DNA from: a virus
Taxonomy: Duplodnaviria > Heunggongvirae > Uroviricota > Caudoviricetes
IMG/VR virus record: IMGVR_UViG_3300010362_000014
Coordinates: 10,740 to 74,739 of that record
DNA length: 64,000 nt
Direction: 5' to 3' (one strand)
Shown in pieces: positions 15,869 through 51,120 of this stretch. How positions within the stretch are numbered: the stretch's first letter is position 1; each line of letters opens with the position of its first letter. A model generated the notes under the pieces. The model saw only the letters and a program-made list of their open reading frames with translations, did no database searches and was not told the origin of the DNA. A program made the translations under genes and the position numbers.

Positions 15869-17029
15869 ATGGCAATTGCTGTTCGTCGCGCACCAACTAG
15901 GCAACCGCTGCCTGCGAGTCGTTTAGGCACTAGGCTGCTGCGTCCTTCAGCTATGTCCGGTCCTCCAGATCAGAATCTGAATGCATTTGCTGTAACATCT
16001 GAGGAAAAGTTTGGTAGCTCATCCATAACGCAAAATCTTGTAGCTGTTGGCATAACTTCCGAAGAGCGTTTCGGATTCACTGCAGTAGCTATGGCCATAA
16101 GTGTTCCAGGCATAGTGTCTCAAGAAAAATTTGGCAATACGCTAGTCGCTCAAGCAATTACTACACCAGGCATTAGTTCTGAGGAAAAATTTGGAAACTT
16201 TGTTGTATCGACAACATATACAGTTACTGCTTTTGCTGTACAATCCGAAGAACGATTCGGAAGCGCTGCTGTTGGACAATCTATCGTTGCATTTGCTATA
16301 ACGTCTGAAGAAAAATTTGGTAGTTCATCAATTACACAGAATATTGTAGCTGTTGGCGTAGGCTCAGAAGAACGCTTTGGTATAACATTCACTAGTTCAG
16401 TTATAACTTCTGCATCCATAGCCGGAGCAGAGCGGTTCGGCAGTTCATCACTAGCTCAGGGCGTACTTGGTATATCAATTTATTCGGAAGAGAAACTTGG
16501 TAATTCATCAATAACATCAATATATACAATAAGTGCGATTCCTATAGTATCTGAAGAAAGATTTGGCAATACGCTAGTATCTGCGACATATAACGTTGCA
16601 GCGGCTAGTATTACATCTGCCGAACAATTTGGGAATGGTTCAATAACTCAGAATCTTATTGCATTCCCAATAAGATCAGAAGAAAAGTTTGGGAATGCTA
16701 ATACTGTATTGATAATAACGGCTACACCGATTGGACCATCCGAAAAATTTGGTGTATCGGTATTAACTGCGGGTTCGGTAACAATAACAGCAGCATCAAT
16801 TCAGTCTGAGGAACGTTTTGGATTAACCGTAACTAGTCTCGGATTCCTTCAATTAATAATACTACCATTTTCGATCAAGTCCGAGGAAAGATTTGGTCCC
16901 ACTACATATATAGGCAACAGAATTGATATTGATGTAATATATACGCCCGCTCCTATACTATCATGGATTGATACATCCTCACCAGTAATTTCCATAGTTG
17001 GTGAATCAGTAGCCGCACTAGTTACGTAA
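15869..17029 (+). CDS. tandem-repeat protein (about 17 copies of a 22-aa SEE(K/R)FG repeat)
   Basis: The protein is almost entirely ...SEEKFG(S/N)xxxxQxhhAhxI(T/S)... repeats. Last gene of the plus-strand block. Confidence 0.5.
   Translation: MAIAVRRAPTRQPLPASRLGTRLLRPSAMSGPPDQNLNAFAVTSEEKFGSSSITQNLVAVGITSEERFGFTAVAMAISVPGIVSQEKFGNTLVAQAITTPGISSEEKFGNFVVSTTYTVTAFAVQSEERFGSAAVGQSIVAFAITSEEKFGSSSITQNIVAVGVGSEERFGITFTSSVITSASIAGAERFGSSSLAQGVLGISIYSEEKLGNSSITSIYTISAIPIVSEERFGNTLVSATYNVAAASITSAEQFGNGSITQNLIAFPIRSEEKFGNANTVLIITATPIGPSEKFGVSVLTAGSVTITAASIQSEERFGLTVTSLGFLQLIILPFSIKSEERFGPTTYIGNRIDIDVIYTPAPILSWIDTSSPVISIVGESVAALVT
15990..16900 (+). repeat. 66-bp in-frame tandem DNA repeat (about 14-17 copies) encoding the SEEKFG repeats
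   Basis: Periodic gaagaaaaatttgg / gaagaacgttttgg motif visible every 66 nt. Confidence 0.5.
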
Positions 17030-26393: not shown

Positions 26394-26816
26394 TCAAGGA
26401 ATGGGTCCAACTCCAATTCCTGCACTGCATACCTCTTTTGCAATTTGAGTGAGTCCATCTTCTATGTCAAATAGCAGCTCATTGCAGGATATGCAATAGC
26501 ATAAGGTTGGATCTACATATTGTCTATATTCCGGTGTATGAGAGTCATGTACTTCCCGCTTAAATCTTTTCCTAGTCCACCATATATTCCTACAATAGAT
26601 ACCAGCTTCGCCGCATCTTTCGCATCTACATCCAAAGTCGAAATATCCGGCGCGAGTTCCATGTCGAGGATCATCGTTATTCAATGTGGTCTTATGAGAT
26701 CGTAGGCGTTGACGGCGCTTTTCTTTAGTATTTGCAGCAGTACAAATTTTACACCTACAACCATGAACGGTATACCCACGACGTCCATGACTGCGAATTT
26801 TTAGTTTACGTCTCAT
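26394..26816 (-). CDS. tandem zinc-ribbon module protein
   Basis: Two copies of HGT(R)xGYxxxGCRCxxCxxA(N). Paralogous to 27673..27957. Confidence 0.4.
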   Translation of the reverse strand: MRRKLKIRSHGRRGYTVHGCRCKICTAANTKEKRRQRLRSHKTTLNNDDPRHGTRAGYFDFGCRCERCGEAGIYCRNIWWTRKRFKREVHDSHTPEYRQYVDPTLCYCISCNELLFDIEDGLTQIAKEVCSAGIGVGPIP

Positions 26817-27672: not shown

Positions 27673-27957
27673 TTAACTTTCTGTTAAGTTAGACTTATCT
27701 ATTCTTTTCTCTTTAAGCCGGATCCTTCTGGCTCGCTGATATTCAGTATTCGCCTTCTTACATCTTTCACATCTACATTTCATGTTCATATAGGCATTTC
27801 GCGTTCCGTGCAAATGTGAATCATCGGTAAGTTTGGCTAGCTTTCTAATACGCGATAACCGTAAGTAATCCGTATTCGCTGCTCTGCATTTATCACATCT
27901 ACACTTATATTTATTATAGGTACTTCTTTTGCCATGTTCACTTTCAGGAATCTCCAT
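27673..27957 (-). CDS. tandem zinc-ribbon module protein (paralog)
   Basis: YNKYKCRCDKCRAANTDY and HGTRNAYMNMKCRCERCKKANTEY. Confidence 0.4.
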   Translation of the reverse strand: MEIPESEHGKRSTYNKYKCRCDKCRAANTDYLRLSRIRKLAKLTDDSHLHGTRNAYMNMKCRCERCKKANTEYQRARRIRLKEKRIDKSNLTES

Positions 27958-30496: not shown

Positions 30497-30892
30497 TTAA
30501 TCTTTAATGTCAAATTCGCCATCCTTAGCACCTAGCAGGAATGCCTCCCACTCGGCTTTGTTGAATTTTAATACAGGTCCGCTCGGGTCCTTACTGTCGC
30601 GCACCAATATAGCAAGTTCCTCAGGCCGATTAACTTCCACGCAACTAGCGCTATCAGCACTTGCTTCTGATTTTAACCAATCTCCACTAACCTGAAGACA
30701 CTCTCCGCCTGAATAACTAGATTTATTCCAGGCCCCCACTTCTACACAATTCCCATTACCGCCTGAATAACTAGATTTATTCCACACACCTATCTCCACA
30801 CAATCGCCAGGAACGCAGAAACTAGATTTTACCCAATCTACTTCTACGCAAGCTCCATTATCCGCTGAATAGCTGGATTTCCTAAAACTCAT
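30497..30892 (-). CDS. DUF397 (BldB-like) domain protein
   Basis: C-terminus SCVEVNRPEELAILVRDSKDPSGPVLKFNKAEWEAFLLGAKDGEFD matches the DUF397 consensus. The N-terminus holds 3 extra partial KSSYSGGNGNCVEV repeats. Confidence 0.65.
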   Translation of the reverse strand: MSFRKSSYSADNGACVEVDWVKSSFCVPGDCVEIGVWNKSSYSGGNGNCVEVGAWNKSSYSGGECLQVSGDWLKSEASADSASCVEVNRPEELAILVRDSKDPSGPVLKFNKAEWEAFLLGAKDGEFDIKD

Positions 30893-31191
30893 TTAACTAT
30901 CTCCTTTAATCTATTTGCGGATTCTTTTGCACGCGCAAGAGACTTATCCCATGAATCGTCAAGGCCCATTATTGGTGGATCTAATTCCTCGGCTATCACT
31001 GCATGGGCGAAATCAGCAATGTCCTTGACATCATCTGGTGTTACGGCCTGAGTCCATACATGCACAAAACATGCTTGTCTGATCCACCGCAGTCCAGATT
31101 TCAGACGCGATATCTCCGTGTCTCTCCGCTCAATCAATCTCCCTAATTGTTCAACTGAAGCATCAGTTTCTCTAATCATAATTACCACCAA
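30889..31191 (-). CDS. hypothetical protein
   Basis: Coupled ORF. Confidence 0.25.
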   Translation of the reverse strand: MVVIMIRETDASVEQLGRLIERRDTEISRLKSGLRWIRQACFVHVWTQAVTPDDVKDIADFAHAVIAEELDPPIMGLDDSWDKSLARAKESANRLKEIVK

Positions 31192-34914: not shown

Positions 34915-35439
34915 TCAGCTCACTGAGAATTCATTAGAAATCAAATTATTAATCTGTTCTAAATCCGTCGGAAAGTCTTCAGTGAGCTCATCTAAACTCT
35001 CATAAAATGGAACATTGAAACATTCCGAAACGAGTTTAGTTCCGTCTCGAATCCAAGTAAAATTCGGAGCAAGCGCAACCACTCTCGCCTTCTCCGCACG
35101 AAATCCGGATGTTCCAAGGATAATTCTTCCATAAGCTTCAATTACCCCGAATACAGGAATCCTTGTTGTTGGTATAATAGGCGGCATATACAGTCCATAC
35201 AATCCACATTTACATGCAAGTTCAGGAGCTAGAGTGTCATGATATAAACAACGTTCATAAAAATTCGATGTAGACCTATAATAGCGAGAATGACAATGCG
35301 CCAAATTTTCGCCTATGGACCATATATTAATGGGATATCCACCAATAGACATTAATTTATTGTCCCGCAAGAACCAGCTTCTATATCCTCTGAGTACCCC
35401 AGGAATGAGTTCTATTTCTTTATTGCTATATTCAGACAC
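34915..35439 (-). CDS. hypothetical protein, RGYR-W/GFRAE family paralog A
   Basis: Shares LxPGxLRGYRxW, CxCGxYGxY and ILGxSGFRAExA blocks with 37223..37972. Confidence 0.4.
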   Translation of the reverse strand: MSEYSNKEIELIPGVLRGYRSWFLRDNKLMSIGGYPINIWSIGENLAHCHSRYYRSTSNFYERCLYHDTLAPELACKCGLYGLYMPPIIPTTRIPVFGVIEAYGRIILGTSGFRAEKARVVALAPNFTWIRDGTKLVSECFNVPFYESLDELTEDFPTDLEQINNLISNEFSVS

Positions 35440-35685: not shown

Positions 35686-36297
35686 TTAATGGAACCAATT
35701 ATAATAGTTTTCACGTTCCTCGAACCTTATGAACGTCGGTTGTGTGCCTTGTAACATCTGTTGGTGCCACATAAGCATTCTACCAACTCTACCATTACCA
35801 TCTATGAATGGATGAATTTTCTCAAATTCAATATGTAAAATTTTTGGATCTTCACCAGAATTGTACAACTTGATCCAGTCGTCCATAAGATCTGGAATAT
35901 CATTCGGATCTGCCACTCTGGATTGAGTCCCAGTTATATAAACCTTACACTTACGATATTGGCCTATTTCCGGTCCGTGAAGGAAATTAAGCATAATTAG
36001 GCGATGAACTCTTAGTATTATTTCTGTTGTTAGAGTCTTACGTATCCTAAGATAAAACCATGCATCTAGACTTTGATCAATTTCCTTAAGGGAAACAACT
36101 CCCTCAATCATATTAGAATGGCGAATAAGGCTTGCCATATCTGGACCGTTTGTCTTAATCGGCATCGACCTATAGCTTCCATCTGGATTGACAAATGCTC
36201 TTGTTGGCCGATGACAGCATGGCTTTACCCACAAGTTGAGATAATGCGAATATGCAAAACCGAAGCTTGGCTTTGCACAACTACACCATGAAGTCAT
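35686..36297 (-). CDS. Fic/Doc family protein
   Basis: Canonical Fic motif HPFIDGNGRVGR. Confidence 0.75.
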   Translation of the reverse strand: MTSWCSCAKPSFGFAYSHYLNLWVKPCCHRPTRAFVNPDGSYRSMPIKTNGPDMASLIRHSNMIEGVVSLKEIDQSLDAWFYLRIRKTLTTEIILRVHRLIMLNFLHGPEIGQYRKCKVYITGTQSRVADPNDIPDLMDDWIKLYNSGEDPKILHIEFEKIHPFIDGNGRVGRMLMWHQQMLQGTQPTFIRFEERENYYNWFH

Positions 36298-36565: not shown

Positions 36566-36587
36566 TTTGCCTCCTATTTCTATCTTG

Positions 36588-36660
36588 CGCCCCTAGTAGG
36601 ACTCGAACCTACAGCCTACGGATTAGAAGTCCGTTGTTCTATCCCTTGAACTATAGAGGC
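36588..36660 (-). tRNA. tRNA-Arg (anticodon TCT)
   Basis: Hand-folded cloverleaf. Acceptor GCCTCTA/TAGGGGC, D stem GTTC/GAAC, anticodon stem ACGGA/TCCGT with loop CTTCTAA, T arm GTAGG-TTCGAGT-CCTAC. Confidence 0.75.
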
Positions 36661-36674
36661 ACTGAATCCATATT

Positions 36675-36968
36675 CTATCCTAACGTTATATTTGCTCCAT
36701 AATGACTACTAAGTTCTTCTTGATACATATCACGCTCACGTTCCATAGATTCCGCTAGCGCTTCGAAGTACTCTTCTTGTGTAATTATTCCCCTAGCCAT
36801 GAGGACTGCGACTAACGCCGAATGGTCCACCATTGCCGAATTTACACCAACTCTAAGATGCTTTGGCGATGTTTCTGCCCCATCAAGTTCCATCTTTGCT
36901 GTTACACCGGATTGCATCGCATGCAGAGCATCATGGTACCTTTGTATAGAGGATTCCATATCCGTCAT
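36675..36968 (-). CDS. hypothetical protein
   Basis: ORF. Confidence 0.3.
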   Translation of the reverse strand: MTDMESSIQRYHDALHAMQSGVTAKMELDGAETSPKHLRVGVNSAMVDHSALVAVLMARGIITQEEYFEALAESMERERDMYQEELSSHYGANITLG

Positions 36969-37222
36969 TCGCTCTCCTTCCCACCACCAGCATCAATGAT
37001 AAGCAATAGGTTATCAGGCTCGCCAAGCCTTTTCCACCAACTCTTCCTGATGTAAATTGTATCAACAACCGGATAAGTCTCATCATCTATGACGGCCTTA
37101 AACTGTACTGTATTCTTCGTTTCCTTCTGCCAAACCATAGTAACTTCTGCAGCACTTTTCATATCTAATCAATCCTTAGTTCCTTAGTTCCTTACATGCT
37201 ACAAGTACAATTCATTAGTTTC

Positions 37223-37972
37223 TTAATATGGTAGTCTATTAATCAATGGCATACGATATCCACAATTTCTACAAACAATACAAGAAACCGCCATCGTCGA
37301 TTCAATCTCTTTTTGTGATTGATACGACACCAAGCCACACCTACATTTGCGACTAATTATATCATGTTCGGACTCGTGTTTAGGTTCGGATAGAATCGCA
37401 TTGATATTTTGTAGAGGAAATTCCGTTTCTAAGTATCTGAGTCCCAGATAACACGGGACCTTATATAGCCCGGCAATATGCCGGAGTAGTGAACCTTGCG
37501 TATTATTACCACAAATGGCCGTAATTTTAGCATATTCGGCTCTGAATCCACTTTCACCTAATATTACCTTTCCCCACGCATCAAAGCATCCATATATTGC
37601 ATACGGGCTCCTACAATGCGCAAAAATATTAGTGGGATTATAAACACCATATACACCACAAGTGCAATCTATTGCAGGAGCAGGATGGTCAAAGTGTGGA
37701 TTATTACGATTCTTTCCAGAAGCGTACAAGCACCTAGCCTTTATTTTTGTAACTGGCCACTTAATCCGATAATCGTTGACAGACGTTAGATAGGAATATT
37801 CTCCCCATGAAGTATGATCCCATGGGATATGATCCCAATCCTGGGCATCCCAATAGGACTTCACATCAAGGTGTTGTAGCTTTGGCATCCATGCCCGATA
37901 TCCTCGTAGCTTGCCTGGGACTAATAATCTCTCTGGTCCGGTAAATGTCATTAGATATCCCTTAGATTTCAT
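37223..37972 (-). CDS. hypothetical protein, RGYR-W/GFRAE family paralog B with C-terminal zinc ribbon
   Basis: Paralog of 34915..35439, plus a C-terminal CRCG...CIVCRNCG. Confidence 0.4.
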   Translation of the reverse strand: MKSKGYLMTFTGPERLLVPGKLRGYRAWMPKLQHLDVKSYWDAQDWDHIPWDHTSWGEYSYLTSVNDYRIKWPVTKIKARCLYASGKNRNNPHFDHPAPAIDCTCGVYGVYNPTNIFAHCRSPYAIYGCFDAWGKVILGESGFRAEYAKITAICGNNTQGSLLRHIAGLYKVPCYLGLRYLETEFPLQNINAILSEPKHESEHDIISRKCRCGLVSYQSQKEIESTMAVSCIVCRNCGYRMPLINRLPY

Positions 37973-38396
37973 ATTTTTCTTTAAATCGGACCTGCTGGCC
38001 TCCCGTTACGCCTATTACCAAGCCCGTGATCGGTAAATTGGACTAAGTAACCAGCAGATCCTTTATTTTGAGAGGGGGAAATAATAGGTTAATCTAGAAT
38101 CCCCTACCATCCAGGGCGCCCGCCCAAAGTTTGCCTGTCAAGATTCGAACTTGAATTTTCAGATCCATGATCTCAGGCAAATACCTTAGACGCTGATCTT
38201 ATGTATAGAACATTCATTTTCCGGATCAAGCATGTCGATATATAGGCTACGCCCGGTTTCGTCATCTGGAATAAATACTATTGGACATATACACTTGGGA
38301 TTCTTAATTCTATAAATCATCTCTTGGACTTCATCGAGTCTATCGTGAATTTTATCGATATAATCTAATGAACTGTAATTAAATAAATCGAGAAAC

Positions 38397-38939
38397 CTAC
38401 GTAACCTTTGAAACATAATTTTCCATCGCTATCTCGAATTGTTCCGGAAGATCCCAACCTAACTCTATAAGTCTTCTTATTGCCTTAACTGTTGCGCCGG
38501 CGCCTTGACCGTCGAAAACAGCACTGTTCATTACGTAATCTAGGGCATCGGTATATCCGCGATCTATAACCAGGAACGGTAGCACATTATGAAGTATTAC
38601 TGCCATTGATGCGCCAGTCATTGTCCACTTAGATGTATTTACTATTCCGCCTTTGGCAAGAAATGGATATTCATCATGCATTGCCCATACATGCACATGA
38701 GGCTCGGGACAATGTTCGTTACATGCCCGCCGCATCCAATCCTTGGTAGCTCTCGACTCAGAAATCTCCGGTTTTGTTCCAGTAAGCGACGAGAGTTTGC
38801 GAACCACGGCAAGCTCTTTAGTTTGAACATATAAAGTTAACTGTCTTGTATTACGTGTTTTATTTCGTTTTTCGACAATTCTTCCTTTAAGGTCGATGAC
38901 TCCTGCCATCCACCCAAGCTGTTGAGCTGGAATACTCAT
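38397..38939 (-). CDS. hypothetical protein
   Basis: ORF. Weak resemblance to LAGLIDADG (GWMAGVIDLKG) is not relied on. Confidence 0.25.
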   Translation of the reverse strand: MSIPAQQLGWMAGVIDLKGRIVEKRNKTRNTRQLTLYVQTKELAVVRKLSSLTGTKPEISESRATKDWMRRACNEHCPEPHVHVWAMHDEYPFLAKGGIVNTSKWTMTGASMAVILHNVLPFLVIDRGYTDALDYVMNSAVFDGQGAGATVKAIRRLIELGWDLPEQFEIAMENYVSKVT

Positions 38940-39477
38940 GTCTTCTCAATCTTATTTTCCGTCTTCCAAGAATTGAAGGTATCACTGGATACCCTTCTGG
39001 GTATCATTACATCACCATATACATACATGAGCAGCCAATACTCACCGCACTCACACTGCCAAATAGTTCTATCTTCTCTATTGCTGATTCCTGATACATC
39101 GCACTTATGCAATTTTCCTATTATCTTACCGCTCATTTGCCCATCTTCTTTAACAGGACCTGTGATAGTATAACTTTCAGGCGATTCTTTTTCTCATCAT
39201 CATCGAGATGAATGCCAGAATTATCTATAGCGTATGATAATGCTAGATCCAATAACTGCAAGTCCTGGTAATCCAGATTCGCAAGCTTGTATCGTTTACC
39301 GATCATTCATGCCTCGATCTACTTTTCATTTTTTCTTGTATTTTCACTATCCGATCTAGATCTACAGGTAGCGTAGATCTAAACTCTACCGGAGCATAGT
39401 TGAAATAGAAGTCTATGATACTTACGAGTGCCCTTACATCATCTTTGGTTAAACTTAAACTCAATCTATCGGTCATG

Positions 39478-39551
39478 TGGGACAGGTGAGACTTGAACTC
39501 ACGATTACCATTTTATAAGAATGGGGCCTTAACCATCTTGGCCACTGTCCC
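39478..39551 (-). tRNA. tRNA-Ile (anticodon TAT)
   Basis: Hand-folded. Acceptor GGGACAG/CTGTCCC, anticodon stem CCATT/AATGG with loop CTTATAA, T arm GTGAG-TTCAAGT-CTCAC. Confidence 0.65.
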
Positions 39552-39862
39552 TGGGCTAGCCTAAGCTAGCTTTTAATCATATAAATGCTTGTATTTCCGT
39601 CTAACTTGGCGTCTAATCTTACGCTTAAGTCTAAAAACTCTAAACTTTCGTAACAGGTAGTATCCATATGCTACTATAATTATCATAGTAGCAACAAATA
39701 CAGCCTGGAGTACGCTCACTTACGCTTCTTCGATTTTGACAAAAAACTCGGTGCCATCTTGTGTTTCCACCGCGATCTCGTTTTCACTAATGATTTCAAC
39801 AGTGTTGAGTTGATTTGAATCAAGTAGAAGACTCTCCAATTCCCTAAGTAGCTGCTTTAACG

Positions 39863-40342
39863 TCATCTTAGACAACCAATCTGTTCGACCTTCTCAGATA
39901 GCGTAGGAGCCTGTCTCGGAACATCAGGTGGCTTGACTAGCTTTGCCTTGAAAGCATTTGCAAGTTCGGCATTGTATCTAGCCTGTATGCTATTGTAGTT
40001 TGCTTCTCGCGCTAATGTTTGCGAAACTCGCTGTACTTTGATAGCCGGATCTGTCTCTGCATCTTCGGCCTTCTTAGCCGAACACCAATTCAGCGCCGAT
40101 GCCGTCAATGACTTATCGTAGGTGTAAGCAAAATCCCATTCAGAACTGACATGCTGTGGACTTATGATGTTTGCACCCGTGCTAAACCAACCACTAAGTA
40201 ATCCGATTACGGTAAATATTATACCAAAAATCAGAAATACTCCAATAGTTTTAAAGAGTAATCCAATTGGAGTCTGACGACGAAACCACCCAACTTCAGA
40301 CGAGTACTCATCGTCATGCATTTGTCCGAATGTTCTACCCAC
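39863..40342 (-). CDS. membrane protein
   Basis: N-terminal TM helix (IGVFLIFGIIFTVIGLLSGWF). Confidence 0.35.
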   Translation of the reverse strand: MGRTFGQMHDDEYSSEVGWFRRQTPIGLLFKTIGVFLIFGIIFTVIGLLSGWFSTGANIISPQHVSSEWDFAYTYDKSLTASALNWCSAKKAEDAETDPAIKVQRVSQTLAREANYNSIQARYNAELANAFKAKLVKPPDVPRQAPTLSEKVEQIGCLR

Positions 40343-40988
40343 TATGCACCAACCCTAGCAGTGCCGCCGCAGCAGGACATGGTGAGTCTGGCCTTGGATC
40401 TTTTGCCCTACACTTCTTTAATTCCGTCTGAACTTGTGCATCAATCGTATGCAAATCTACACCAGATGATACGGTAATATCAATCTTTGTAGACTGTTTT
40501 TGAATCACATCTGGAACATTGGTGCAATACATTTCTAGATTTGTAAAATCGTGATAGTTCCCGGCAGGGTCATATCCATATCTATATTCAGAACTTGTTC
40601 CATACATGCCTTGATCGTCAGGCAGTTCAGGATTGTACTTATATAGATAAGTGTTGTTATCTCCGTTATCGACCTCAGTAGTTGGCTTAGGCCGCTTATT
40701 GCTTGATGTTAACTTTCCAGCAATTGGCACTGTAAATGCTGCTGCATTTGGATTAGATGGATATGCAGTACACCAAATTAGTGCTGATGGATCATCAGAT
40801 TGAATGAGACGTGCGTTGTAATTGTGACCTTCGACATCATTCTTTGGTATATAATTCTTTCGATTATCTGCTACGTCCTTCGCTGTTGGGTTTTTAACAG
40901 TGTTATCCGATGTGCAAGCGCAACTAACCGTCAATAAAATTGGGATAGATGCTACTGCCACAATTTTCATCAATCTCGCAATGTTCAA
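40335..40988 (-). CDS. putative lipoprotein
   Basis: Signal peptide with a lipobox-like LTVSC(AC). Confidence 0.4.
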   Translation of the reverse strand: MNIARLMKIVAVASIPILLTVSCACTSDNTVKNPTAKDVADNRKNYIPKNDVEGHNYNARLIQSDDPSALIWCTAYPSNPNAAAFTVPIAGKLTSSNKRPKPTTEVDNGDNNTYLYKYNPELPDDQGMYGTSSEYRYGYDPAGNYHDFTNLEMYCTNVPDVIQKQSTKIDITVSSGVDLHTIDAQVQTELKKCRAKDPRPDSPCPAAAALLGLVHSG

Positions 40989-40991
40989 GTT

Positions 40992-41912
40992 CTATCCTTT
41001 TGTCGTTGGTACGTTCACTAATCCACTATTCATCATACAAAGACCGGGCGCAATTCCCATCTCCCGAGAATATTCAATACACTTGTTCTGGACATATTCG
41101 GGTGTTAGAACCGGACGCAGTTTGTCCGATACTGCCTTTTCCTTGTCAGCATTCAATCTCTGCTGATCAAGAATTCTCGATTGTAGAACAACATCCTGGA
41201 ATTTCTTGATGTTCTCTTCAGTCTTGGCGTCATGATGCACAATGGGAATAGCAACTGTATAAATTTTAATGCCAAATTGCTCAACTGCCTCAGACAGCCG
41301 CCGCTTCATGTCCTCTGCAAGTTTAGCACCATCGAACGTAGTTTGTCCAGTACGAATGTCAACTTGGGCCAATGGGTTATAAGTTGCAAAAGTAGCATTT
41401 AGGGCATTTTGAATTTCTAGATCTACAAAGTTTGCCTTAAGGTTATTAAAATCTCCCTTATATGTCTTATACAAAATCGGGGCCTGATCGCCTACTACCT
41501 GCCACTGAATCCGATTTTCTACACATGCAGTGGCAAGAGAACCGATACGAACTACCGTACAGCCATGATCCCAATCACCAATATGGTTTTCAGTGATCCT
41601 AGACGCATCAAAGTCAGCGACTCGCTGCCACGGCCATACAAACTTTAGTCCATTACCTGTTACGCGACCTGTTGGAGCGCTAAAACTAGTAACAATTCCA
41701 ATGTTGTTGACCGGTACTTGATAAGCACATGCAAAGAATAGAAAAATTACCGCGATGAATCCCAAACCTAATGATACAATTTTGCTGGTAGATTTCCATG
41801 GAATATCGTCTCTACGACTTCTTTCTTCATCTGGCTTCGCCTTAATCGCAACACTTACAAAAGCTACGGCTAAAATAAGAAAGAATATGAATGCAATGAA
41901 TTCAAATGACAT
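40992..41912 (-). CDS. SPFH/band-7 (prohibitin/HflK-like) domain membrane protein
   Basis: N-terminal TM segments followed by VPVNNIGIVTSFSAPTGRVTGNGLKFVWPWQRV, which is SPFH-like. Confidence 0.55.
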   Translation of the reverse strand: MSFEFIAFIFFLILAVAFVSVAIKAKPDEERSRRDDIPWKSTSKIVSLGLGFIAVIFLFFACAYQVPVNNIGIVTSFSAPTGRVTGNGLKFVWPWQRVADFDASRITENHIGDWDHGCTVVRIGSLATACVENRIQWQVVGDQAPILYKTYKGDFNNLKANFVDLEIQNALNATFATYNPLAQVDIRTGQTTFDGAKLAEDMKRRLSEAVEQFGIKIYTVAIPIVHHDAKTEENIKKFQDVVLQSRILDQQRLNADKEKAVSDKLRPVLTPEYVQNKCIEYSREMGIAPGLCMMNSGLVNVPTTKG

Positions 41913-42263
41913 TTGTGGTCGTTTTCTCCTTATTGTATTATAGCCCGATTTGACTATAGTAGGCCGCCAGGGTATTGATCCCTGTTCTCTAGATTAAAAG
42001 TCTAGAGCATCACCTTAATGCTTGCGGCCCAATCAAATTATGAGTTAAATGGATTTACGTACCCATTCGGGTCCTGCGTCATTAATATCATATTCGATTT
42101 TTCCTTCGACGCCGGTTATGCCTCTGAAAGCCGCTGTAGCAGGTTCATCTGGCCTATCCATTGTATTATGAAATCCAGCATTACGCTCGATTCTAACGTA
42201 TTCTTCTTTGGGAACTTCCATCCATTCCAAATCGGTTGAAATTTTTATAAAATATTTATTCAT

Positions 42264-42985
42264 TTATTCTTCTCGTTCCTTCTTGTGCTCTTCTTCAAAG
42301 AAGTCTACTACCGCTGCACCTGTACTCTGCCCACTAGCATATGATTTTGTGGCAGACCTTAACGTTGTAAATGTTGTATTATATGATGCAGCACTTCCGG
42401 TTGTACCAACGGTATTTGCTGCACCAACCAGGCCAACACCTTGACTCCAAGCATCTGCCCCGGCACCTAGATAAACGAATGTCCACTTATCGGTTGCCTG
42501 AAGCTCACTAATCAACTTGCGAACCGTATCAAAGTCATATTCCTGACTTGCATTTTCCAAGCCGTCTGTCTGGATAACAACAAGAACTTTATCATCGTCT
42601 TGTAATACGGTAGATTTACGGAATTCATTTATCGTTTTGCCTACCGCATCGAATAATGCGGTAAAACCGGCGGAACATAATTACTATTATTTAATTCAGG
42701 CACTTCAGCTGGAACCTTGTTCATGCATAAAGTTACAAAATCAGTATCAAATAACGTTGCCGTAACTAAGCATTCAGTTTGGTCCTCAATAAGACCTTTA
42801 ATATATGAATTGAAGCCACCTCGAACATCCTTCGCCACAGGCGACATGGATCCTGACATATCAGTGATGGTTAAAATATAGGTTGTCATATTATCTCCAT
42901 TCAATATTTTCCTTAGATGGAAAGAATGTGGGCGATCGTGTTTCCAGTTCACGAGTATCCAAAATATCTTCTTCCCAACGATCAA
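42264..42985 (-). pseudogene. von Willebrand factor A domain gene split into two ORFs (42641..42985 N-terminal part with the MIDAS motif DMSGSM, and 42264..42560 C-terminal part)
   Basis: The MIDAS motif is in the upstream ORF and the rest of the vWA-like fold in the downstream ORF. The two are separated by an 80-nt frame break. Confidence 0.4.
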
Positions 42986-43632
42986 CGATTTTTCGAATTA
43001 TTTCCATATCGACAACGCGAATAGCTCCTCGAAATCCGTCATAGTTAACATCGAAGACTTGACGAACGAATTTCATACGTGCTTCATTATCCATCTTTAT
43101 TCTCTTCTAATTTGGATTCGTATACAACTTCCGGAAGGGGCTCACGCGCTTCGTACATAATTTATTCCGTTATCGAGCCACATATCAAAGTGAATCGCCT
43201 GACCATCCGTCAAGTAGCAGCACAGCCATATACGATCGTTATCCATCCGTTCCATACGGAATGTCTCAACATAGTTTATAACGACATCATCGAGGCCGAG
43301 ATCATCATACCTTAGCGCAATTCGATAGTCATCACTCATCTTTATCCTTATTCGGATCTAATGAGTCGCTAGATGGTATTTTTGTAGTATTCACTTCTTG
43401 CCATATCTCAATCAGATGTCTAGCTTCGTCAATGGCAATCAAATGGTGATCAGGGGATCCTGCTTCATCACACAGGTCATAGTAGATCCGTAACATTAAT
43501 GGTAATAGCTTGTCTTGTGCTCGAAATACTACAACTGGTTCGTCATCCGCAATGGTTCCGCGTTCTGTTGTTACGCTTCCATATTTCGAATCAATTGCCA
43601 CTACTTTCCTCATTTCTCTTAGTACGTGTTTG

Positions 43633-43705
43633 TACCCCTGACAGGATTTGAACCTGCGACATGCGATTTAGGAAACCGCTGCTCTATCCACTGAGCTACA
43701 GAGGT
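43633..43705 (-). tRNA. tRNA-Arg (anticodon CCT)
   Basis: Hand-folded. Acceptor ACCTCTG/CAGGGGT, D arm GCTC-AGTGGATA-GAGC, anticodon stem GCGGT/ATCGC with loop TTCCTAA, T arm GCAGG-TTCAAAT-CCTGT. Confidence 0.75.
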
Positions 43706-43886
43706 AGTGCTAGAATGAATCTCATCGAGGTGGCACCTGTATCAGAATGCGCAACGAGGCTTACGATCCATTCTAGCTTTAGAAGCAAAATCTTAGCCTT
43801 TACTACAAGAGCAACCGAATACAAGACAATCGAAATTGCTTCTAGCTTCAATCGTCCGTTTTATGTATCTATATCGTTTAGATTGC

Positions 43887-43945
43887 TACATATGATGAGG
43901 TTATAACTACATATGATGAGGTTATAACTACATATGATGAGGTTC
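43887..43945. repeat. tandem repeat, about 2.8 x 21 bp (ctacatatgatgaggttataa)
   Basis: Read directly. Overlaps the stop codon of 43928..44305. Confidence 0.75.
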
Positions 43946-44305
43946 TAGATAGAAACGCCTCTTTGGTAGAGAACTTCCTATATGATTACATTTGTAGAAC
44001 GATTTTGCATTACAGCATGGGCGAATTCCATCAATCATGGTAGTACCATGTTCGTCAATAACAGAAATCTTGACGATATAATTTCCACCTTGACTTATTA
44101 TTATAGGTAGATTCTTGTTGTTCTTAGCTCTGCGCTCGGCGGCTTGGGTTAGTTTTAATTCATGACCCGTCGGCTCACCACGGGTACGGGCAGTTTTATT
44201 AGCGGCCTCACGAAGCTCCTGAGCGGCCTTGCGCTGTGCCTTACGAGCCGCAGTGTGCGCACGTGCCTGCGCCGCGTCCTTCTTTTTCGGTGGATTATTT
44301 GCCAT
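43928..44305 (-). CDS. basic (K/R/A-rich) protein, possible DNA-binding
   Basis: The N-terminal 60 aa are highly basic. Confidence 0.3.
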   Translation of the reverse strand: MANNPPKKKDAAQARAHTAARKAQRKAAQELREAANKTARTRGEPTGHELKLTQAAERRAKNNKNLPIIISQGGNYIVKISVIDEHGTTMIDGIRPCCNAKSFYKCNHIGSSLPKRRFYLEPHHM

Positions 44306-44766
44306 ATATGATCAATTCCTTTCAAGAATTATAGTTTTCTATTGATTCGTAATATTATTAAACCAATTAATACTCCTAAGATAAAGGCTATTGCATCAAT
44401 AACTATTCGTTCTAGAGTCATTTTATTACCGGCTCTCATAATCCGGCTAATTGGCTTTGGCTGCAGGAAGTCAATCCAACCTTATCCTTTTCGTGTATGG
44501 CAATCTGGCTAACTATCTCCATCGCTAACCTTTCCAGTCGTAAAATATACATTCTACGAAATGTATATTCTAGCCTGTCAGGCAATCTCTTTCGCCGCCA
44601 AGTAGTTGCCTAATCACCTTGATCTCCGCCAATCTCGGAGGACAAATCCTCTTTAGAAGTTAAAACATTACCCCCCTAGAAGATAAATCTTCCAGACTGT
44701 AACTGCGACGCATATGTTATTTATGCCTACACTATTAAGACTGACATATATTATTTAAGCATTTAT

Positions 44767-45249
44767 TTATGTCCTAATGCCTAATTTTTCTAATTCTATC
44801 AGATACTGCTGACGTACTGCTCGTGCGATCACGAAAATTTCTTCTTCATACTCCGGAAGGAGAGTTACATCTTCGAATTTCGGATCACTTCGCGATTCAA
44901 GAGCCGCCAACGATGTTGTATTGCTAAGATTCACGGCCACGTGTGGCACACCGTCCGGAATGAAAATAGACTCATATTTCCCATGAATCATGGAAATCCA
45001 TTTTTTATCATCAAAAATTAATGTTGCTGCTGTGCCCTCTAAACAGGTAACTATAATTTCACTATGCTCATGAACATGAGCCTTAGATACACCCCCAGGT
45101 TGCATAATGATTAACCCCTGAGAGATAAATTCAGATCCAGATGTTTCTTCAGTAATTAAAGGGTAAACCTTTTGCCCCTGTGGAGATGTAACCGGTTGAA
45201 TCTTGTGTGCTGAAATTATAGTTACTCGTTTAGTCATGGTTTTATCCAA
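44767..45249 (-). CDS. cupin-domain protein
   Basis: G(x)5HxH(x)3E ... G ... H ... N pattern (QPGGVSKAHVHEHSE ... PDGVPHVAVN). Confidence 0.5.
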   Translation of the reverse strand: MDKTMTKRVTIISAHKIQPVTSPQGQKVYPLITEETSGSEFISQGLIIMQPGGVSKAHVHEHSEIIVTCLEGTAATLIFDDKKWISMIHGKYESIFIPDGVPHVAVNLSNTTSLAALESRSDPKFEDVTLLPEYEEEIFVIARAVRQQYLIELEKLGIRT

Positions 45250-45638
45250 TCCGTTAAAGTTGCTAATTAGCTCATTCGTCGTCTACATTCATCTTCACCC
45301 AAATCGGATTCCAATATACACGATCCCATTGAAGATTACCATCTTCGTCATAACCGCGGAGAGTTATGCGTTTATTTTTGGCTCTCCATCTAATATTATA
45401 CGCGGAAAGGTTGACGACTTCTAGAACAACTACAGATTTGTAAAAAAGCTTAACTCTCATATTTACTTATACTCCACAATCGGTACAAAGATTGGTATCA
45501 AATTCTAAATCCTATCTTTTTCACCTTAAGCTATTACTCACGGTCAGCCCCCGGAGTTGTTGTTAAACTTCTCCATAGACCTAATAGCACCAGCCGGCTT
45601 TTGTATAAGGTCCGAAAAGATAGGGAGAAACGTGGCAG

Positions 45639-45721
45639 CGGAAGATAAAGGAATCGAACCCTCATGTTGTTAACATGGCACGGTTTTCAAGACCGATTGA
45701 GCACCTTGCTCGCTATCTTCC
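45639..45721 (-). tRNA. tRNA-Ser (anticodon TGA), type II
   Basis: Acceptor GGAAGAT/ATCTTCC with a G discriminator, D stem GAGC/GCTC, anticodon stem CGGT/ACCG with loop CTTGAAA, long variable arm CATGTT-AAC-AACATG, and a TTCGATT T loop. Confidence 0.6.
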
Positions 45722-45988
45722 TAATATGGTTCTTCATATCGTGGTATTATATCCTGAAATTGTATGGACAGAATATTAGACAAAATATTCTCCACTATTT
45801 TAGCTTACTAATAATTTCTGTCATATTCCTTCCCTAATAAATTTCTCATACTCTTTGGCTGCATCTAGTACCTTATTCATAAGCTGAATCGAATTCAGCT
45901 GATTCGCATTTCCAGATAGTGCTATTGCAGCTACCCTTAACGCGATAGCTCTAATTTTTTGATCTGTCATATCTAATCCAATCCAATT

Positions 45989-46050
45989 ATATTTATTCGT
46001 GATTTAGTCATAATCTTCCTATATTTATTCGTGATTTAATCATAATCTTC
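45989..46050. repeat. 30-bp direct repeat, 2 copies with 1 mismatch (atatttattcgtgatttaRtcataatcttc)
   Basis: Read directly. Intergenic, downstream of 46036..46329. Confidence 0.7.
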
Positions 46051-46329
46051 AAATCCTGATGTGAACTCATCAGGATTTACTTTTATAGCTCGACAAATTT
46101 TTACCCAAAACTCATTTGCATGTTTCGTACATAAATCTCGATGATGTTTATAGTTCACGCATAGCTCCGGATTTAAGTAAATAATAAGCTCTTGTCGATC
46201 ATCATTATCATCATATGGATCATCAGATATATCAGTACCACATACATCACATTTATATGTGGCTTCCTTGACATAAATAGTCTCAACTTTCTCGGAAATT
46301 CTGATCTGCCGACTCATACTATTCCTCAA
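46036..46329 (-). CDS. small zinc-finger protein
   Basis: CDVCG...C...H...C. Confidence 0.3.
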   Translation of the reverse strand: MRNSMSRQIRISEKVETIYVKEATYKCDVCGTDISDDPYDDNDDRQELIIYLNPELCVNYKHHRDLCTKHANEFWVKICRAIKVNPDEFTSGFEDYD

Positions 46330-46645
46330 GATTATTTGTTCGATCCGTATGTCTATCCACCCATGACCAGAAAAGGTTAGTATTACTTATGAGATTCAAT
46401 CCCCAATGACCATTCTTCATGTATCTCCACTGGGGTCTAGTTTCCGTTTTATGAGTTTTAGAATCCCATTTATATAATCTGCCATATCTAGGAATGTTAT
46501 TTAATATGCCAATTAAGTTGACAATTTTATCTTGAGTCCGTATACTACATTTTTCTTCAATTTCGTTCGCAACATATGTGATTATCGGTTGAGTTAGCTT
46601 ACGGGGAGTTCTTAATATTATACTTAATATACGATTGAAATTCAT
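46319..46645 (-). CDS. hypothetical protein
   Basis: ORF. Confidence 0.25.
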   Translation of the reverse strand: MNFNRILSIILRTPRKLTQPIITYVANEIEEKCSIRTQDKIVNLIGILNNIPRYGRLYKWDSKTHKTETRPQWRYMKNGHWGLNLISNTNLFWSWVDRHTDRTNNLEE

Positions 46646-47565
46646 CTCAATCTCGATCTAATCGGCAAGCAAGCCTCACCCTGCTCAGATATCAATCTAG
46701 ACATTGCCGATCTTTTAATCTTTGCACATCCGTTTATTCCCCAACCTGGTCCCCACGAATTATGTAAGATATAGCAATCTTCCTTGAGATTGATACCCTT
46801 GGCCAAAATACAATGTCCGCCGGCCAATGATCCTGTGGGCTTTATATAGCCATTAATATCTGGCTTGAACATTCCCGTATACCAATTTATGCCAAGAACT
46901 ACTGGACCATGGTATGCAATTGCAGATGCAATCTCTTGTTCGGTATCTGCCCAGTGATACGACAAATAAAAGCTTAATGATGTCAAGACTTTGGCACCAG
47001 CAAGTACAGAGGTGCCTTCATAGAAGGGCACGGCGCCGGGATATGCACCGCCTGGCCATTCATCATTTTGTTGGAATTGAAAATAAAGCGCATTATTCTT
47101 AATAAGATTTGATACCGTATCAAATTTGACCAGGACTGGTCTAGCTAGAAGCTCATGTGAAAATCCATATTGGACACATGTGCCTTCATTACCTTGGTCT
47201 AGATGATATTGGTTTACTTTACTAAAACCAACCGACCAAGTGTAAGACCTAAGTGGAGCTGCAACATCTATGATAGCCGATATTCTGAAATTCCGGCTAC
47301 GAATGTCGGATTGCAAGATTCTACCAAGACGAGGATCAGAAACTACAGATCCATCCTTCAGTCTGGTTCCAGTTCTAGCCATTCTGACCAAGATTCTATC
47401 AAATAGGACCAAGAATTCATATAATATAAAGTGACTACCCCAACGATTGGGGGACTCAGCCTGGGGACAACTGGTATAATCGTTGGGGTAGTCACGTCTT
47501 GTTGTTACTATTCGTAATCTGTCCAATTTGATATGATATTCTGGAAGAATTAATATTCCATGCAC
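46642..47565 (-). CDS. papain-like cysteine peptidase (C1 family-like)
   Basis: Order of triad segments: NEGTCVQYGFSH (Cys) ... GGHCILAKG (His) ... ILHNSWGPGWGINGCAKI (Asn-Ser-Trp-Gly...Trp-Gly). Confidence 0.5.
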   Translation of the reverse strand: MHGILILPEYHIKLDRLRIVTTRRDYPNDYTSCPQAESPNRWGSHFILYEFLVLFDRILVRMARTGTRLKDGSVVSDPRLGRILQSDIRSRNFRISAIIDVAAPLRSYTWSVGFSKVNQYHLDQGNEGTCVQYGFSHELLARPVLVKFDTVSNLIKNNALYFQFQQNDEWPGGAYPGAVPFYEGTSVLAGAKVLTSLSFYLSYHWADTEQEIASAIAYHGPVVLGINWYTGMFKPDINGYIKPTGSLAGGHCILAKGINLKEDCYILHNSWGPGWGINGCAKIKRSAMSRLISEQGEACLPIRSRLR

Positions 47566-47729
47566 GACATTTGGAAGTATAGCGAGATCATCGCGAAGAG
47601 CACCTTGTTGATATATTGAGACATCGTTTAATCTTTACCATCTAATTAAAGTGTATCATTTGATTAAGACAGGTTTACTAGAGCTCAATCCTTTTCACTC
47701 AGTAACACGCTCTCCCTCGCTATACTTCG

Positions 47730-47801
47730 AGACCCTGACAGGATTTGAACCCGCATAAAGACGATTTGCAATCGTCTGCCTATCCATTCGGCCACAGGAT
47801 C
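47730..47801 (-). tRNA. tRNA-Cys (anticodon GCA)
   Basis: Acceptor GATCCTG/CAGGGTC with discriminator U, D arm GCC-GAATGGATA-GGC, anticodon stem GACGA/TCGTC with loop TTGCAAA, and a TTCAAAT T loop. Confidence 0.65.
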
Positions 47802-48145
47802 ATAGTTGTCCGGCAGATCTAACTCCCAGAAATAAATCTTATTTCTGATCATGACTAGTCTTGGCTTAGGAGGGTGCTTTAACCAGACAACGTTGTACTA
47901 CCACATTGATGTACTCAGACCGCAGACCAGCGAGGGCCTACGTCTAATATTGTCCATTTTATTGTTCGTTATCCGTTTTATTATCCACAATTTCTGATGT
48001 TATTCTAGCATAATTCTGGAATTGACTATCTGTCAGGGTTCTAATCTTTTTACCAAGTTCGTTTTGCCGTCTAGTTAGTAGATTTTCTGCTCGAATAACA
48101 AGTCTGAAAGCCTCAACGGCATTTGCAACTTCAGGATCCATCATG

Positions 48146-48229
48146 TGCGGACGACGAGACTTGAACTCGTATGCTCTCTAGAGCGGAAACTTTTAAGGTT
48201 TCTGTGTATGCCGATTCCACCACGCCCGC
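48146..48229 (-). tRNA. tRNA-Leu (anticodon TAA), type II (bldA-like specificity)
   Basis: Acceptor GCGGGCG/CGTCCGC with discriminator A, anticodon stem GAAAC/GTTTC with loop CTTAAAA, variable arm GCTCT-AGA-GAGC, and T arm ACGAG-TTCAAGT-CTCGT. Confidence 0.7.
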
Positions 48230-48710
48230 AGTTATATATTTTTACTGGCTTTGGCGGGGAGGAGCCGATACCCTTCGACCCCTCCCCTTTTTCTCGGATA
48301 AGAAACTATGATTTTCTACCGAAAATTGGGTCAGTATCCCACCAACGCCGTTTAAAGATGCAAATCAATCTTTAAGACTTTGCGTACTGCCATTATACGA
48401 TTTCCCCATGGGTATAGTCTTTAGAGTATATGAATATAATTTTGCAGGAATGAATATAATTTTGGAGGGGAAACCAGGATTCGAACCTGGACACAAATGT
48501 CACTGTATGCATCTGCTCGATTTGGTGTTCGTGCCTTTGTTACCACGAGACTAGAGCGATAATCTCAATCTTACATGGATTTATTTTGCCAATTAAACTA
48601 CTGCGGCACGACTTAAAGCCGCAGGATGGATTCGAACCACCATCTAATCCTGATGAGTTAGACTGATAATGAGTCTAACTATGTAACCCGTGCGCTCTAA
48701 TCACGGGAGT

Positions 48711-49448
48711 CTATGCGAAAAGATATCCAAAGACTACGTTAGATACCTTGACATTATCAACTTCTGTTGAATTTGCTCGTTCTCTGGCTACCTTTACGGC
48801 ATCGGTAAGCTTACGTACTCGTTCAAGTAATTCACTTGAACGAGTAGCCGGAATAGCACCCGAGAATCGTGTGGTATCCCAATAGCCGACGAGCACGTCT
48901 TCTTGATAGGGCTGAACCTGAGCCGGATGTTTTTCGGTCGCCTCATAGAGCACAAAAGCTTTCGGTACTTTCTTGCTTTTAACAGTAGTAGTTACCGGGG
49001 AGCGGTATGTTCCGGTAGTAGAATCAAATTCCCATTCAACCGAAGGATCAAGAAGTGGAAGCTTACTAACGAATGTGCTAATATCAACCAGCTTCTTTTC
49101 CAAGAAGAGAAGATATGTCACCGGCACATTTGCTAATAAAACGGTGCCGTCGATGATAACATCGGCTTTAGCTGCTGTATTACCAGTCTCTAAGGTGGCC
49201 GTCAAATCGAAAAGTCGAGAAAGTGACTTTGATGCTCTATCTAAAAGATTATCTACCGTTATCTGAACCGCATTGCCCTCATTTGGATAGACATCGCCCT
49301 CGTCATCCTTACGACGATAGACTCTGGTCAGTCCGCTTAGTGGTTCTGCCCGCTGTGAATCGTGGTGAACTTTGGTAAATGATGTTTCTGCTCTGTTCTT
49401 TTCACCCTTAACTAGGGCGATAACCTGATTAAGTAAGGCCATTCTCAT
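48711..49448 (-). CDS. hypothetical protein
   Basis: 245-aa ORF. Confidence 0.35.
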   Translation of the reverse strand: MRMALLNQVIALVKGEKNRAETSFTKVHHDSQRAEPLSGLTRVYRRKDDEGDVYPNEGNAVQITVDNLLDRASKSLSRLFDLTATLETGNTAAKADVIIDGTVLLANVPVTYLLFLEKKLVDISTFVSKLPLLDPSVEWEFDSTTGTYRSPVTTTVKSKKVPKAFVLYEATEKHPAQVQPYQEDVLVGYWDTTRFSGAIPATRSSELLERVRKLTDAVKVARERANSTEVDNVKVSNVVFGYLFA

Positions 49449-49654
49449 CCTTATCCAATAACAATTTTAAATTAATCGTATGGTACATCGTAGCCTCGCC
49501 GGGAATCGAACCCGGTCTTAACGCAGACCGACAGAGCGCAAAGCTAACCAATACTCAACAAGGCCAAGCGGCTAATATAGTGGCAGGCAGTCCCACTCAT
49601 CCTGCACTTTGGGCAAGGGCTAATTAGGAATCCCCTCGCACTATATTAGCCTCG

Positions 49655-49728
49655 TGGCTGGTAAGAGAATCGAACTCCTAACGTCCACCGTTCATAAACG
49701 GATTTGACGCCTCACCCAATATCCAGCC
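49655..49728 (-). tRNA. tRNA-like gene, anticodon arm non-canonical (possible tRNA pseudogene or unusual tRNA)
   Basis: Acceptor GGCTGGA/ACCAGCC, D stem TTGG/TCAA and T arm AGGAG-TTCGATT-CTCTT are fine. The anticodon region CCGTT-TATGA-AACGG gives a 5-nt loop. Confidence 0.3.
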
Positions 49729-49841
49729 TGTTCTCGGGTAGCGAGTATAACGCTGGTGCCGGCCAAAATTCCCATACCCGAATAGGGGACCCTCATGAAT
49801 TTCACATATTTCCCCACCTTCTCAGATGAGAGTTCTATATA

Positions 49842-50258
49842 TTACAGATTTGCAACAAGTCCATTAGTTGTATCGGTCACGGTAATATCTACAAAACTAA
49901 CCGTCATGGGAGGATCGCAGCTAGGACTAAGTTCCGCAGTTAAAGTCAAGGTAAAGTCCGCTTTTCCGTTTTGTACCGGGAAATCGCCTTCTGCTGTAAG
50001 ATCTTCTTTGTTAACTGCTTTAGGATGGTTACCGCCACCGTTTATACATAATGCCGTAGCGCTTACTACAACATGAATTTGTTCTTCATCGCCGAGACCT
50101 GCTTCTTTGCCGACCACAGTCAATGTGGTGTCTGTTTGTGTTGCTGAGAAAGCCGAGTCGATGAAATGTGGACTTCCAGCGAACGCCGGGATTGGAACGA
50201 GCAGGACCATGATTATACCAGAAATCATGATTAGTCCGACTCGACCGATACCTTTCAT
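49842..50258 (-). CDS. secreted/exported protein with N-terminal signal peptide
   Basis: MKGIGRVGLIMISGIIMVLLVPIPAFA followed by a T/S-rich beta-like sequence. Confidence 0.4.
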   Translation of the reverse strand: MKGIGRVGLIMISGIIMVLLVPIPAFAGSPHFIDSAFSATQTDTTLTVVGKEAGLGDEEQIHVVVSATALCINGGGNHPKAVNKEDLTAEGDFPVQNGKADFTLTLTAELSPSCDPPMTVSFVDITVTDTTNGLVANL

Positions 50259-50296
50259 AGAGCCTCCATATAGTATATGAAGGAGAAATCCTTCGT

Positions 50297-50370
50297 GGCG
50301 GGTAACGGATTTGAACCGCTGATCTTCGGCTTATGAGGCCGACGGGAACGACCGAGCTTCCCCAACCCGC
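50297..50370 (-). tRNA. tRNA-Met (anticodon CAT; initiator, elongator or Ile-lysidine type not resolved)
   Basis: The 3' half GTCGGCCTCATAAGCCGAAGATCAGCGGTTCAAATCCGTTACCCGCCA closely parallels bacterial tRNA-fMet. Anticodon stem TCGGC/GCCGA with loop CTCATAA, D stem GGAA/TTCC. End coordinates are +/-2 nt. Confidence 0.6.
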
Positions 50371-50494
50371 TTTGAGGTAGTCAATTAGATTGCCTACCGA
50401 ACTGCGCCACCCCGCTTTGGATTAATTCACGGTATTATTTATACTATAATCTTTGATTAATATTATGTGATTGAATCGAATACTTATATTTGCT

Positions 50495-50749
50495 TTACCA
50501 CCATAGCCACTGCGCGATATGACGGTGTTGATAAGATGGCGTTTCTATATCAGTTTCACTGTTTGCTCTATAATCCTTGATTGCATTTACTACATCTATG
50601 CGCACCTTCGCACGCTGCGGGCCGTACCATACGTGATTTATGTACCATTTCGGTGGGCTTCGAAACCAATGATATGGATAGACTTCTCTGTTTCTAAGAC
50701 GATATGGTACATCTTTGTCTGTTCTGGACATAACGTAGGCTCCTTTCAT
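50495..50749 (-). CDS. hypothetical protein
   Basis: ORF. Confidence 0.25.
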   Translation of the reverse strand: MKGAYVMSRTDKDVPYRLRNREVYPYHWFRSPPKWYINHVWYGPQRAKVRIDVVNAIKDYRANSETDIETPSYQHRHIAQWLWW

Positions 50750-50764
50750 GAACCTTACGTCATA

Positions 50765-51109: not shown

Positions 51110-51120
51110 ATAAAACCCCT

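Follow-up and report, generated by a model that had tools for sequence, protein, structure and literature searches.

Proteins of the DUF397/BldB family are among the most expanded regulator-associated proteins of actinomycetes that produce antibiotics, where the median number of copies in a genome is 19-26, and the key role of BldB in development has been recognised since the 1990s. To our knowledge, neither a biochemical activity nor a structure is known for DUF397/BldB proteins. What, then, does a tailed phage do with a member of this family, and on what could the protein act when the regulator that usually accompanies it is missing? This question is raised by a gene in the 64-kb stretch of phage DNA analysed here (the window). 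The gene lies on the minus strand at 30497..30892, stop codon included, starts with ATG and encodes a protein of 131 aa.

The initial annotation had assigned the gene to DUF397 and suggested an HMM search, which bore the assignment out. Pfam PF04149 (DUF397) matched with E=1.9e-36 and 124.5 bits against a gathering cut-off of 24. The match falls into four stretches, the best of which runs from residue 71 to 123 and takes in positions 2-55 of the 55-position profile. PHROG 10815, a family with no function assigned, was also recovered (E=1.4e-29), and neither NCBIfam nor PADLOC matched the protein or its neighbours. DUF397 is characterised by two motifs, CxE in strand 2 and RDS where strand 3 ends (PMC7159879). 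Both are kept in the phage protein, as C84-V-E86 and R98-D99-S100. Within an alignment of 92 sequences (A1) D99 never varies and R98 hardly does, and R46 and D47 are invariant in alignment A2. All named relatives that we found agree with the proposal that the family is confined to actinomycetes, and so does the literature (PMC7159879, PMC10294661).

The protein consists of a complete DUF397 domain preceded by copies of its first beta-hairpin. Using the hairpin pattern 'W.KSS.S...C[VL][EQ][VI]' we found five occurrences in the 131-aa protein and none in 20000 shuffles of it, hence the repeats are not due to chance. Tandem Repeats Finder returned no repeat in the DNA of the gene, since the hairpin repeats are too diverged. 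Three extra N-terminal units had been counted before; there are four, plus a fifth within the domain, all encoded on the minus strand. Unit 1 (residues 3-18, FRKSSYSADNGACVEV, 30839..30886) is identical to the family hairpin consensus at 12 of 17 positions and unit 2 (residues 20-34, WVKSSFCVPGDCVEI, 30791..30835) at 9 of 17. Unit 3 (residues 37-52, WNKSSYSGGNGNCVEV, 30737..30784) is the most canonical of the five (17/18). It forms a DNA repeat with unit 4 (residues 55-68, WNKSSYSGGECLQV, 30689..30730), with a 54-nt period, 80% identity and 26 identical nucleotides in common, which points to a recent duplication. The complete domain (residues 72-128, 30509..30679) comprises unit 5 (residues 72-87, WLKSEASADSASCVEV), the VRDSKDP strand, the VLKF strand and the helix AEWEAFLLGAKDGEFD. 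Unit 5 is the most degenerate of the hairpins (8/18 against the family consensus), and the complete domain may for this reason fold in a non-canonical way.

The usual form of DUF397 is a single small domain of at most 100 aa (PMC10294661), from which the phage protein departs with its length and its four extra hairpins. In this respect the earlier description of a non-standard architecture was right, but it overlooked that multi-hairpin forms are frequent among relatives. Two units are present in 59 of 96 database relatives, three in 11, four in 6, and five in one, which is the phage protein itself; 18 have a single unit. Arrays of ~6-10 units exist as well (P0169, P0208, P0263, P0174). Since multi-hairpin members are so frequent in the databases, the 131-aa form is a variant and not a case for exclusion from the family. 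We conclude that the gene is a new multi-hairpin, stand-alone variant of the known but poorly understood DUF397 family.

Structure prediction allowed a limited view of how the hairpins are arranged. AF2 modelled the full chain with a mean pLDDT of 55; the model is confident in residues 90-125 only and its N-terminus is not interpretable. For residues 53-131, modelled from a well-aligned set of 75 sequences of which most have two hairpins, the core strands 2-4 and the helix reached pLDDT values of 63-92. Four beta-strands followed by a C-terminal helix are expected for the family, whereas strand 1 of the modelled core is a 2-residue bridge only. In the same model the extra hairpin stayed below a pLDDT of 50, and packing of the extra hairpins on the monomer is on this ground not predicted. 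This would fit arms that are flexible and might pair with strands in neighbouring molecules. A sequence search of the PDB with the DUF397 protein gave no match and thus no solved homologue. The simple topology of the modelled core resembles that of the dimeric folds with four strands and a helix seen in PC4/Sub1, PUR and the KhtT N-domain.

That the gene is encoded by a phage, here an uncultured one, as claimed before, is evident from its surroundings. The window holds genes for a tape measure protein, Dit, minor tail proteins, an endolysin and a holin. It also encodes a family A DNA polymerase fused to UDG and exonuclease domains, a primase, AAA_24, an SNF2 helicase and a PD-(D/E)XK nuclease, together with an RNA ligase, a Fic protein, an SPFH protein and 11 tRNAs. 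No integrase was seen in the 64 kb. Megablast of the 6 kb around the DUF397 gene against GenBank phages (50,697 records) gave no match. An identical protein (P0001) sits in a soil-type metagenome contig of 88.6 kb, which extends ~24 kb beyond the window.

Within this genome the DUF397 gene is part of a tightly packed early/replication operon in a long minus-strand array. A Shine-Dalgarno sequence, AAGGAG (30901..30906, minus strand), is found 8 nt 5' of its ATG. The stop codon of an upstream open reading frame (30889..31191, minus strand, 96-100 aa) overlaps the start codon in the sequence ATGA. This overlap and the tight packing suggest that the gene is probably translated jointly with its operon neighbours. 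Sites resembling promoters or terminators were no commoner around the gene than in shuffled sequence. Its GC content is 44.4%, it contains two TTA codons, and its GC3 (36.4%) is the same as the mean of the phage (36.5%). The composition is thus that of a long-term resident and not of a recent capture.

Cellular DUF397 genes commonly have a WhiJ-like XRE/HTH_31 gene immediately upstream, often with an overlap, but here an ORFan stands in this place. The upstream frame contains no XRE or HTH domain, has no Pfam family above cut-off and no PADLOC or NCBIfam match, and a database search returned only the frame itself. We considered it as a conserved DUF397 partner and rejected this, since it is an ORFan and an unrelated Cys-rich protein occupies that place on L004, a phage-like locus discussed below. 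Pfam scans of essentially all minus-strand (non-structural) open reading frames of the window revealed no HTH_31/XRE, AbaA-type HATPase_c or WhiB domain. An AbaA-like HATPase_c gene lies near about half of the XRE-DUF397 loci. Also phmmer searches with three WhiJ-like XRE proteins of cultured phages found none in the 64-kb window, with all positive controls recovered. Within the window the phage gene is therefore an orphan with no recognisable partner; the ~24 kb of the 88.6-kb contig that lie outside could in principle encode one.

How does this arrangement compare with that of the relatives? Among 1.84 billion cluster representatives 5449 relatives were found at E<=0.001, and E<=1e-30 was reached by the phage protein alone. 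The protein is a singleton at the 50% identity level, its best relative being ~53% identical. A scan of IMG/VR viral contigs with the DUF397 protein found no relative. The closest cellular relatives fall into the class of XRE-DUF397 pairs, such as WhiJ9-BldB9, Scr1/Scr2 (SCO4441/4442) and 14 other pairs of S. coelicolor. DUF397 proteins with 3-4 hairpins and 31-48% identity to the phage protein occur in cultured Amycolatopsis (A. rhabdoformis), Actinomadura and Streptosporangiaceae. When cellular multi-hairpin loci were searched with the three phage XRE proteins, a WhiJ-like XRE gene ended at the DUF397 start in 18 of 20, and such multi-hairpin proteins are hence ordinary members of XRE-DUF397 systems. 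The phage gene differs from these pairs by the lack of an XRE gene, by the unrelated ORFan upstream and by a phage GC content of 41% against 63-70% at the cellular loci. With BldB of S. coelicolor and S. venezuelae the phage protein shares a DUF397 domain with CxE and RDS in a small soluble protein, a likeness at the level of the family domain. Like the phage gene, canonical bldB is not adjacent to whiJ or abaA (PMC10294661). The phage protein has five hairpins and is encoded by a 41%-GC phage, whereas BldB is one domain of at most 100 aa.

Other phages carry DUF397 genes as well. In the 50,697 GenBank records we found them in about six distinct phages: PIS 136, Success, Picard, Mojorita, Darolandstone and Samy. 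The proteins of these cultured temperate actinophages (Picard gp24, Mojorita, Darolandstone gp25, Success gp7, Samy and PIS_119 of Saccharomonospora phage PIS 136) are 62-73 aa long and 38-41% identical to the protein described here. In PIS 136, Success and Picard an HTH gene of 278-324 aa lies directly upstream of DUF397 with a 4-nt overlap; in Mojorita, Darolandstone and Samy the DUF397 match overlaps or adjoins a gene annotated as DNA-binding. The pair of Success is located near a recombinase gene. In contrast to these, the protein of the present, tRNA-rich phage is an orphan with five hairpins. Orphans were recovered from uncultured phage contigs, where P0025 (L033), P0021 (L034), P0041 (L032) and P0003 (L004) have 2-4 hairpins and no adjacent XRE gene. 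Like the gene here, they are placed among small phage genes on one strand. A terminase gene is found near the orphan in L033 and L034, and L004 and L032 are phage-like loci. L033 shares with the window an SPFH protein, a Cys-rich protein and a DUF8296-like protein. These contigs differ from the present phage in a GC content of 63-70%, and their proteins are only 40-52% identical to the one described here. Judged from gene context, there are thus two kinds of phage DUF397, namely XRE-DUF397 pairs in temperate phages and stand-alone copies in early-gene arrays. Of the stand-alone phage DUF397 genes found, the one described here has the most hairpins and by far the highest AT content.

The likely host has to be deduced from genes of different history. 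The GC content of 41% throughout the window is odd for an actinophage and lies ~20-30 points under that of every genome with a close relative of the DUF397 protein. The minor tail protein has homologues only in Streptomyces, Arthrobacter and Microbacterium phages and in one record named only Actinomycetia. For the lysin the only homologues are in Mycobacterium, Rhodococcus, Gordonia and Saccharomonospora phages, and most primase homologues belong to actinophages. One gene stands out by its composition. A DeoC/DhnA-type class I aldolase resembling ADH synthase (60391-61209, minus strand) has 63% GC, a GC3 of 69% and no TTA codon, and the named proteins that match it with 55-60% identity all come from genera of the Micromonosporaceae (Phytohabitans, Actinoplanes, Catenuloplanes, Paractinoplanes). 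It was probably captured recently from the host lineage and is a possible auxiliary metabolic gene. An actinobacterial host of low GC content was considered but is not supported, since the DUF397 relatives are all on DNA of 56-70% GC and the atypical aldolase has 63% GC and Micromonosporaceae homologues. We infer that the host is a high-GC filamentous actinomycete, possibly of the Micromonosporaceae. Streptomyces is not established as the host, and the sole host-like gene points to Micromonosporaceae. A phage with 41% GC and many tRNAs, whose conserved genes, together with a single recently acquired one, all point to hosts of ~70% GC, is of interest in its own right.

The tRNA genes (36587-51665, minus strand; ARAGORN) read codons ending in A or U, with Leu-UAA, Ile-UAU, Lys-UUU, Arg-UCU, Arg-CCU, Ser-UGA and Thr-UGU among them. 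One of them, tRNA-Leu(UAA) (48145..48229, minus strand), decodes TTA, the commonest leucine codon of the phage with 377 occurrences in 95 of 123 open reading frames. In Streptomyces TTA is read by the developmentally regulated bldA tRNA, and the tRNA-Leu(UAA) and TTA usage of the phage may be tied to this aspect of host biology. Amid the normal tRNAs, ARAGORN also reported a tRNA-like gene at 49654-49728 (minus strand) as 'tRNA-???', with an abnormal two-base anticodon loop.

What could a stand-alone BldB-family protein do in an infected actinomycete? BldB does not bind DNA; it forms strong hetero-oligomers with most of its paralogs and acts via WhiJ9 on a sporulation inhibitor, and BldB-WhiJ fusions exist (PMC10294661). 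DUF397 genes overexpressed alone altered antibiotic production and differentiation and were not toxic (PMC10364602; bioRxiv 10.64898/2026.06.17.732583). Infection by phages sets off sporulation and the production of metabolites, responses that may restrict the spread of the phage (PMC10276819). Since the phage supplies no WhiJ-type XRE of its own, its DUF397 protein would most likely act via protein-protein contacts with host components. Candidate targets would be the many hetero-oligomerising DUF397 paralogs of the host and their WhiJ-like XRE partners, for which the repeated hairpins might offer several binding surfaces on one chain. As a result, the WhiJ/BldB-controlled programmes (aerial growth, sporulation, antibiotic production), which infected filamentous actinomycetes switch on, would be expressed in an altered way. 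We therefore tentatively favour the reading that the multivalent BldB-family protein of the phage, which stands alone, binds DUF397 paralogs of the host or its WhiJ-type regulators and thereby resets developmental and antibiotic programmes during infection, which makes it a candidate interferer with both. A phage copy with no XRE partner and with one hairpin multiplied would amount to a minimal, dominant form of the family made by nature. It might serve as bait for DUF397 binding partners or as a genetic tool to perturb development and wake silent gene clusters, and it is relevant to the ways in which phages deal with the sporulation and the chemical responses of infected Streptomyces-like hosts.

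A bolder version would give a virulent phage, with a GC content very low for its apparent host, two tools against the developmental checkpoint of a filamentous actinomycete: the tRNA-Leu(UAA), which would free it from bldA-type TTA control, and a stand-alone, five-fold multivalent BldB mimic, which would titrate BldB paralogs or WhiJ regulators. Both tools together would block the sporulation and the antibiotic response by which infection is normally contained. We regard this combination as rather improbable. If true, it would provide the first case of a viral effector directed at the Bld/Whi network and would also hint at what DUF397 proteins bind.

The same orphan could instead be directed against host defence. 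Phages often carry orphan mimics of defence components, and the gene here is an orphan in an early-gene array. It might thus mimic the cellular DUF397 part to jam XRE-DUF397 systems of the toxin-antitoxin or abortive-infection kind, or conflict systems of the VMAP type. Indeed, XRE-DUF397 pairs were predicted to be type II toxin-antitoxin systems (PMC2701414), and ~4% of VMAP ternary conflict systems have a linked DUF397 gene (PMC7159879). However, 14 S. coelicolor DUF397 proteins and Scr2 were non-toxic and the pairs behaved as regulators (PMC10364602, PMC6262351), the literature searched describes no anti-phage defence by an XRE-DUF397 pair, and no family of PADLOC-DB matched the phage protein at E<=0.01. 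A decoy of this kind is therefore unlikely.

A role within the phage itself is suggested by the translational coupling of the gene to an ORFan in a long one-strand operon, and by the temperate Streptomyces phages, whose XRE-DUF397 pairs are kept near lysogeny genes as if for regulation on the phage side. The protein would then work with another phage protein, for instance one of the many small ORFans or Cys-rich zinc proteins, to time phage gene expression or to exclude superinfecting phages. Yet the window encodes no recognisable DNA-binding partner, and the neighbouring genes are not conserved beside DUF397 on other phage contigs, which leaves this role quite unlikely.

DUF397 was proposed by Makarova et al. 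2009 to be the toxic half of a toxin-antitoxin pair (PMC2701414). No XRE 'antitoxin' gene adjoins the phage gene, as would suit a toxin used alone to arrest the host but departs from a type II system, in which the antitoxin is adjacent. No catalytic motif is known for DUF397, and the lack of toxicity of 14 overexpressed proteins (PMC10364602) makes host shutoff by a toxin very unlikely. It is just as hard to believe in a functionless passenger, picked up from the host and drifting with repeats made by slippage, for which the degenerate unit 5 within the complete domain, the recent duplication of units 3 and 4 and the singleton status at 50% identity might speak, since the reading frame is intact with a strong ribosome-binding site, the nearly invariant residues of the family are all kept, the fully phage-adapted composition implies long retention and orphan DUF397 genes recur in other phages.

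Several further genes of the window deserve mention. The Fic-domain protein (35686-36297, minus strand; Pfam Fic, E=6.5e-18) is matched by the SoFic and PDC-S04 models of PADLOC with E values down to 2.5e-23. A minor-tail-like protein (15869-17029, plus strand; PHROG 13352) contains ~16 tandem repeats of ~20 aa, each with 'SEE[KR]FG'. Two paralogous pairs lie on the minus strand. The first (34915-35439 and 37223-37972) has 'LRGYR.W ... C.CG.YG ... G.SGFRAE' in common and the second, DUF8296-like pair (53244-53603 and 53634-53981) 'KQRWIAALRSG.Y.QG.GYL'. Accessory genes on the same strand encode a papain-like C1 peptidase (46642-47565), a cupin (44767-45249), the RNA ligase (57867-58508) and a DUF7873 protein (48711-49448, E=1.3e-94). 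Two small basic proteins (26394-26816 and 27673-27957, minus strand) have duplicated 'G.R..Y...CRC..C' Cys motifs and no Pfam match; similar ones are encoded just upstream of DUF397 in L004 and L033. The SPFH/Band_7 membrane protein (40992-41912, minus strand) has a 26%-identical homologue (6297-7166) that adjoins the orphan DUF397 gene on the 65-kb, high-GC contig L033.

Two observations concern the relatives. In PIS 136 (L009, 1698-3563) the XRE-DUF397 pair adjoins two genes for protein-L-isoaspartate methyltransferases. This context recalls the imiditide/graspimiditide RiPP clusters, which were reported to co-occur with XRE-DUF397 pairs (PMC13097080; bioRxiv 10.1101/2024.10.02.616296). On a cellular contig of 56% GC (L007/L008, 3768-4349) a 193-aa DUF397 protein with four hairpins and a second half-domain at its C-terminus is encoded divergently from nusA. 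Its 'GEFDL.PELE.EL' tail is common to the long relatives P0002, P0006, P0169 and P0174, which suggests a distinct subfamily.
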